Origin: a virus
Lineage: Duplodnaviria; Heunggongvirae; Uroviricota; Caudoviricetes
Reading direction: 5' to 3' (one strand)
Length of the DNA stretch: 64,000 bases
IMG/VR virus record: IMGVR_UViG_3300032007_000002
Shown here: positions 20,834-21,179 of the stretch, piece by piece
How the letters are laid out: every line of letters starts with the position of its first letter
How positions within the stretch are numbered: position 1 is the stretch's first letter
Notes under the pieces: generated by a model
What the model was told of the DNA's origin: nothing
Seen by the model: the letters and a program-made list of their open reading frames with translations, nothing else
Databases searched by the model: none
Translations under genes and position numbers: made by a program

Positions 20834-21179
20834 CGGAGAGGTCCGAGAGACCTCTTGAAGATTGAAAGACGCGGCATGGATTACTTTGCGGTTACGTAAA
20901 AACCGCACGTTCCCGGTAACGTTATCCGGGCAACAAGATATTCGGGGCGGTGGGTGCCGGCTACCTAGCCGGAGGGCTACCGTCCTACCTCTTGTGGATG
21001 GCACTGTCCATCCAAAAAGACCTTCCTGTCGGAGTAACTCGTGGGCGGAGCCGGCTTACTCGCGGCGAAACCTAAACGAGGCAGGGGGCCTTTTTGGGCG
21101 GACAGCCCATGAATTTGACGACTTCGGGGTATGCGGGAAGTTCCCGCAAGTGCTGCCCCGCTGTCGGACGTGTTTGTAT
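20834..21179 (+). ncRNA. Unassigned large structured RNA (ncRNA-1, ~345 nt)
   Basis: No credible ORF; at least six hand-identified helices, including a 15/16 bp stem 21004-21019/21090-21105. Confidence 0.65.

Follow-up and report, generated by a model that had tools for sequence, protein, structure and literature searches.

In a 64,000-nt stretch of DNA from a Caudoviricetes virus (IMG/VR record IMGVR_UViG_3300032007_000002; hereafter the window), an elaborate structure can be drawn between an amidase gene (20235-20780) and a tRNA-Gln followed by a tmRNA (21180-21252 and 21265-21631). The question raised by this locus is whether positions 20834-21179 form an RNA of their own, as the first-pass annotation had proposed, or are part of something larger. 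Genes for thyA, DHFR and RNA ligase lie in the neighbourhood, and the relatives of the window are rumen-type jumbo-phage contigs of 170-470 kb. BLAST against GenBank phages gave nothing meaningful. All features listed below with window coordinates lie on the plus strand.

Structure and transcript of the region 20834-21179

The helices drawn in the first-pass annotation were found where it had placed them (7/7, 5/5, 7/7, 5/6, 15/16, 6/6 and 5/5 pairs). The plus strand of the region folds with -152.6 kcal/mol (z -4.43), a value that 0/100 shuffles reached and 1/20 background windows matched in z-score. One background window (44401-44746; z -4.55 with 30 shuffles) looks mostly coding. The minus strand scored z -3.78, and with DNA parameters z was -4.30; energy alone favours a plus-strand RNA weakly. 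Structure at the RNA level, which had been argued from the G.U pairs, is better supported by compensatory and G.U changes in the relatives. A DNA-level inverted repeat was rejected on account of the G.U changes and a recurring single bulge. The structure is non-coding. Relatives do not preserve the open reading frame 20862-21200: its length there is 35 aa (L254), 68 aa (L001) or 10 aa (sister lineage). A Pfam search found no match to it.

In an Rfam scan of the window only the tRNA and the tmRNA reached the thresholds, with no 6S RNA, group I/II intron or self-cleaving ribozyme; scans of the relatives returned nothing for the structure at 20834-21179. The lack of any Rfam match to the region bears out the earlier statement that RNase P, SRP RNA and introns are absent. 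The large ornate RNAs GOLLD and ROOL had been named as a precedent, and neither model matches. ROOL (RF03087) gave nothing at E<=10 in the window, L001 and four phage records, in a search whose control set contained no ROOL and which could miss a split copy. The conserved 3' domain of GOLLD (RF02032) gave no match to the model in the window, the relatives and the genome searches. Some rows of the ROOL alignment have GAAGAUUGA in their middle part, which was dismissed as coincidence.

A sigma70-type promoter is present at 20799-20827 (GTGACA, 17 nt, TG-extended -10 box TATATT), from which a transcription start at ~20834 is predicted. The -10 box stands at a constant place in all three clades of relatives. 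Its promoter box, TGCTA(C/T)ATTT, occurs at 24 sites in the window on both strands, and only the copy at 20799-20827 is followed by a boxA-like motif. The region 20834-21179 is the 5' end of a promoter-tRNA-Gln-tmRNA transcript and not one self-contained RNA. The closed RNA of ~345 nt envisaged earlier is contradicted by a 5' strand that pairs beyond the tmRNA and by its first ~50 nt, which copy a host rRNA-operon leader. The helix CATGG/CCATG, supposed to close a multiloop, had a pairing probability of 0 when the whole transcript (20834-21825) was folded, and 2/5 of its local pairs are left in the sister lineage.

The long-range helix and the content of the operon

The strand 20867-20880 pairs at 14/14 positions with 21735-21748, its complement beyond the tmRNA. 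In folds of the full transcript (20834-21825) this helix had a probability of 0.85-1.0; it encloses the tRNA-Gln(CUG) (21180-21252) and the tmRNA (21265-21631, tag ANNSAFAYRAAA). In close relatives, C-to-U changes in the trailer strand leave G.U pairs. Homologous operons in three clades were reached through a motif after the tmRNA. Those loci in which the 5' end is present have the promoter, a hairpin and GAAGAUUGA(A/C)A, followed by a strand that differs by clade. This leader strand and its partner change together in 7/8 loci from three clades, with L180 being weak, a set equivalent to no more than roughly five independent lineages. In 7 loci the real leader had a better partner within 4-8 kb than 25/25 shuffled versions of it, and in a cross table the cognate pairs were the most stable, except for L180 and the identical leaders L178 and L184.

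In every locus the best downstream partner is found at the end of the stable-RNA block. It lies at +878 in the window and at +1233 to +2042 in the sister lineage of clade A, where it forms 18-20 bp with different letters and ends ~12 nt before the next gene. The partners in clade B (+6694, +6726 and +7057) follow the last tRNA-Ser by a few nucleotides and precede the next gene by 12-16 nt. In L173 the partner is just before a terminator (+4011), with a second copy in an ORF at +6341, and in L376 it is at +6228. Altogether the helices measure 13-20 bp and span 0.9 kb here and up to 7 kb in the relatives. The leader strands of clades B and C also have candidate partners nearby, which were outscored by the one at the operon end. 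Beyond the known loci, a 14-mer scan of viral contigs gave chance matches only; two such matches, in G003 and G004, were a terminator and coding sequence. A covarying helix between a leader and a trailer after the stable RNAs is found here as in rrn operons; the rRNA expected inside such a helix is absent, and tRNA-Gln, tmRNA and an uncatalogued RNA are enclosed instead. Judged by its covariation, 20867-20880/21735-21748 is an rRNA-type leader-trailer helix.

Inside the helix come two small hairpins (20887-20930), both preserved in clades A and B. Clade A shows two both-side changes in the first; the second has a conserved loop, (A/C)ACG(A/U)UA, under which clade B carries three different stems. 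In clade C the first holds an insert of ~190 nt and the second is not recognisable. In L001, C20904A breaks one pair of the first hairpin.

The arms that follow are restricted to clade A. Arm 1 (20933-20995; z -3.65) has an invariant outer stem, and the sister lineage differs inside it. Arm 2 (21004-21105; z -3.59) is a long stem with 2-3 both-side changes; in L001 both partners of one of its G-C pairs (21050 and 21066) are changed, giving U.U. An alternative hairpin of 6 bp at 20996-21013 is invariant across the two clade A lineages; it competes with the stem of arm 2 and is a possible switch. Arm 3 (21111-21175; z -4.25, 86% column identity) stands directly before the tRNA-Gln. Models of arms 2 and 3 found nothing convincing outside clade A. 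The pair-by-pair comparison within clade A excludes two rows with faulty indexing, those for the tip of arm 1 and the outer part of arm 3.

Within arm 2, the 5' bulge 21030-21037 is complementary to the apical loop 21054-21062, which makes it a candidate for a pseudoknot or kissing contact. Of the H-type pseudoknot proposed earlier, the bulge-loop complement has partial support: it recurs in the corresponding position, with 6 bp here and 7 bp of other letters in the sister lineage; its second stem cannot be aligned, its register is shifted, and the comparison covers two lineages only. For these two lineages the cognate bulge-loop duplexes have -6.0 and -6.7 kcal/mol, versus -4.0 and -0.2 kcal/mol when swapped. 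The contact could be intermolecular. A pairing of 21046-54 with 21687-95 seemed to be kept in L167, but a local alternative exists there and the pairing is not general.

In sum the arms (20933-21175; ~250 bases with partial covariation) are found in one clade and belong to no Rfam family. The sister lineage has a block of 230 nt between arms 2 and 3, and in clades B and C unrelated structures occupy the slot. On this comparison the arms behave as modular blocks. Further clade-specific, uncatalogued structured RNAs are seen in the same operon slot at L166:2200-2542, L167:4330-4590 and L268:4915-5125.

The tmRNA is followed by a conserved structured motif of ~100 nt (21632-21730) without an Rfam match. 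It recurs in all three clades, at 4 viral and 15 metagenome loci, and its closing stem covaries in L166. Across the relatives the helix encloses 0.9 to 7 kb, with many tRNAs, HNH genes and a HEARO RNA. The latter, above the gathering score, lies between tRNA-Pro and tmRNA inside the operon (L166:2737-2965). An optional ORF between tRNA-Gln and tmRNA (L254:4551-5348, also in L257, L261 and probably L175) has an HNH-like motif by eye and no match in a Pfam search. Outside the helix, by 77 nt, sits a 1454-bp tnpB-only insertion of the IS200/IS605 type (21826-23279) with OrfB_IS605 and Cas12f1-like domains, which is absent from L001 and other close relatives. It splits a structured-looking sequence (21749-21825 and 23280-23335). 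The sister lineage lacks this sequence, and its next gene comes directly after the trailer.

Likeness to the rRNA leaders of Fibrobacteraceae

The transcript begins with a boxB-like hairpin (20836-20856, loop CGAGA; pairing probability 0.97-1.0), located shortly downstream of the promoter as in rrn-type leaders. Between the clades its stem changes and the loop stays CGNGA. The motif GAAGAUUGA(A/C)A at the boxA position (20857-20867) is invariant in all 8 phage loci compared. Together, hairpin and motif (20836-20867, the latter reading GAAGAUUGAAA) are close copies of their counterparts in the rRNA operons of Fibrobacteraceae; 15 nt of the window's hairpin are identical to that of the 16S leader L389. 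The 16S leaders of the host have a hairpin followed by a motif of the GAAGAUUGA(A/C)A type or variants of it at the boxA position, and variants also precede the 23S genes. The conserved phage motif matches a host element before 16S as well as 23S. In the 23S leader the strand after the motif pairs with the 23S trailer, and nine nucleotides of the phage leader strand are identical to this host strand. No host homologue was found for the arms and for the motif after the tmRNA.

A pattern of the phage leader, which was fixed after the host leaders had been seen and whose spacing is 1 nt longer than that of the window itself, had 95 matches in 48/151 Fibrobacteraceae genomes versus 2 for the reversed control. 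As a further control, 151 Bacteroidota genomes gave 10 scattered matches. Among the matches inspected, 26/30 were 16S leaders. In G078, the sole complete host genome in which matches were mapped, all 3 are 85-166 nt before its three 16S genes. Scans with promoter plus motif gave chance matches only beyond the known loci. Among named relatives, the best match to the phage ThyA comes from Fibrobacteraceae (83%), and from these sequence relationships the host of the jumbo phage is probably Fibrobacter.

The motif in phage and host is a candidate divergent boxA for Fibrobacteraceae. In one member of the family, L324, the classical GUUCUUUGAAA occupies this place in the 16S leader. Across rrn loci of the family (L298-L327 and L358-L369) a highly variable motif, G plus four variable bases plus UUGAA, was seen at the boxA position before 16S and 23S. 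The host genomes encode NusB, RNase III and Rho; NusB and RNase III are not encoded in the phage fragments searched.

Interpretation and comparison with known systems

Comparison across the clades establishes a promoter, a 5' hairpin, a host-type boxA-position motif and a strand complementary to a trailer that lies at the operon end. We consider it quite probable that the region is the leader of a phage stable-RNA operon, built like the rRNA-operon leader of the host and served by the host's Nus antitermination. The mechanism is drawn by analogy from rrn operons of B. subtilis and E. coli. In the latter species NusB:S10 is brought in by boxA and the rrn antitermination complex forms; this complex has been proposed to keep hold of the leader strand until its trailer is made, after which RNase III cleaves the leader-trailer helix (PMC10250234). 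In B. subtilis the layout of hairpin and boxA is alike and a different consensus binds NusB (PMC13753749). By this analogy the phage probably borrows the rRNA transcription machinery of its host, and Nus binding and antitermination at the phage leader are likely. Recognition of the divergent, purine-rich motif by NusB is a prediction, as it is for the host motif.

Host RNA polymerase would start near 20834, and host NusB:S10 would bind the motif at 20857-20867, upon which the rrn antitermination complex would be built. The complex would keep Rho off a transcript that is untranslated over 0.9 kb here and over as much as 7 kb in relatives, and would hold the leader strand until the trailer emerges and the two strands zip together. 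With less certainty, the helix may separate the stable-RNA block from the following mRNA, perhaps after cutting by host RNase III, and an RNase P cut at 21180 may release 20881-21179 with the arms, either as a folded RNA particular to the clade or as a spacer. Cleavage by RNase III is the more doubtful step, since the phage helix, at 13-20 bp, is short; E. coli requires >17 bp for 30S assembly (PMC10250234). A more far-reaching version, conceivable although we think it unlikely, is a counterfeit rRNA operon: the RNA of ~300 nt (20881-21179), released by processing, would take the place of the host's rRNA and form a pseudoknot or oligomer by the bulge-loop contact, and would represent a new functional class of RNA, with the rRNA transcription-chaperone complex of the host as its folding machinery.

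Another possible interpretation sees the leader as a captured relic of an rRNA operon of the host, its motif kept for promoter-proximal or stability reasons and its helix merely protecting or processing the ends, without Nus antitermination. The resemblance of the phage leader strand to the host 23S leader strand fits such a capture, and the E. coli helix still functions when RNase III is missing, while losing boxA costs only 2-3-fold (PMC10250234). However, a sequence-reading protein is indicated because the unpaired 11-nt motif is invariant while the stems around it turn over completely, and we regard the relic as improbable.

Quite improbable, too, is one large ornate RNA of the GOLLD/ROOL kind, closed by the long-range helix, with tRNA-Gln and tmRNA in a linker and perhaps multimerising via the bulge-loop contact. 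In its favour, tRNAs are sometimes present in GOLLD linkers, and a long terminal stem is a feature of ROOL (10.1101/2024.12.08.627333); the motif after the tmRNA is conserved in all clades and the bulge-loop complement recurs. Yet the two models do not match, the enclosed content varies from 0.9 to 7 kb including many tRNAs, HNH genes and HEARO RNA, and the ends are linked by nothing but the terminal helix, as 21046-54/21687-95 is not consistently kept. The 5' end, moreover, is explained by the host rrn leader. The self-contained ncRNA of ~345 nt closed by CATGG/CCATG would agree with the z-score of -4.43, with its own promoter and with a 3' end set by the tRNA-Gln. Its closing helix is neither conserved (2/5) nor able to compete (probability 0), the sister lineage carries a 230-nt block that separates arm 2 from arm 3, and the arms are missing from clades B and C; as drawn by the first-pass annotation it is largely refuted and very improbable.

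The leader built on the rrn plan suggests how large phages could transcribe untranslated tRNA operons of several kilobases in a Rho-bearing host: with a copy of the host's rRNA antitermination signal in place of an N-like protein of their own. A helix of 13-20 bp that covaries across up to 7 kb and contains no rRNA is a natural test of the model in which the rrn complex holds the leader, and of the roles of leader-trailer helices apart from ribosome assembly. The motif also indicates the host from non-coding sequence alone. A literature search of incomplete coverage found no paper on a phage tRNA operon built on an rrn-type leader; the individual elements have precedents in rrn operons, in lambdoid nut sites and in CRISPR leaders.

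ROOL RNA has about 580 nt, six junctions and three pseudoknots (PMC5737381). With ROOL (RF03087) and GOLLD (RF02032) the locus shares a large folded RNA beside phage tRNAs, a tRNA inside and a possible kissing contact, whereas here no model matches, no multi-junction core persists across the clades and the content is variable over several kilobases. Lambdoid nut sites are RNA signals, hairpin plus boxA, which recruit host Nus factors in an N-dependent manner. They are likewise phage signals for these factors; here, in contrast, the order is that of the host rrn leader (hairpin before boxA), the cargo is non-coding and a trailer helix is present. The boxA elements of CRISPR arrays belong to host loci, unlike the phage operon, and to our knowledge they have no leader-trailer helix. 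Located upstream of the arrays, they guard a long transcript that is not translated against Rho (PMC7862264 citing Stringer et al. 2020; PMC13753749).

The bacterial rrn leader consists of boxB-boxA-boxC, a leader-trailer helix and an antitermination complex (PMC10250234, PMC11404451, PMC13753749). The phage leader has the same order of promoter, 5' hairpin, boxA-position motif and leader strand, has a long-range covarying helix, and is near-identical to the rrn leaders of Fibrobacteraceae. It differs in being phage-encoded and in enclosing tRNAs, tmRNA and uncatalogued RNAs instead of rRNA. Its helix is shorter, 13-20 bp versus ~28 bp for the host 16S helix, and whereas rrn operons have one helix per rRNA, a single one spans the whole phage operon.
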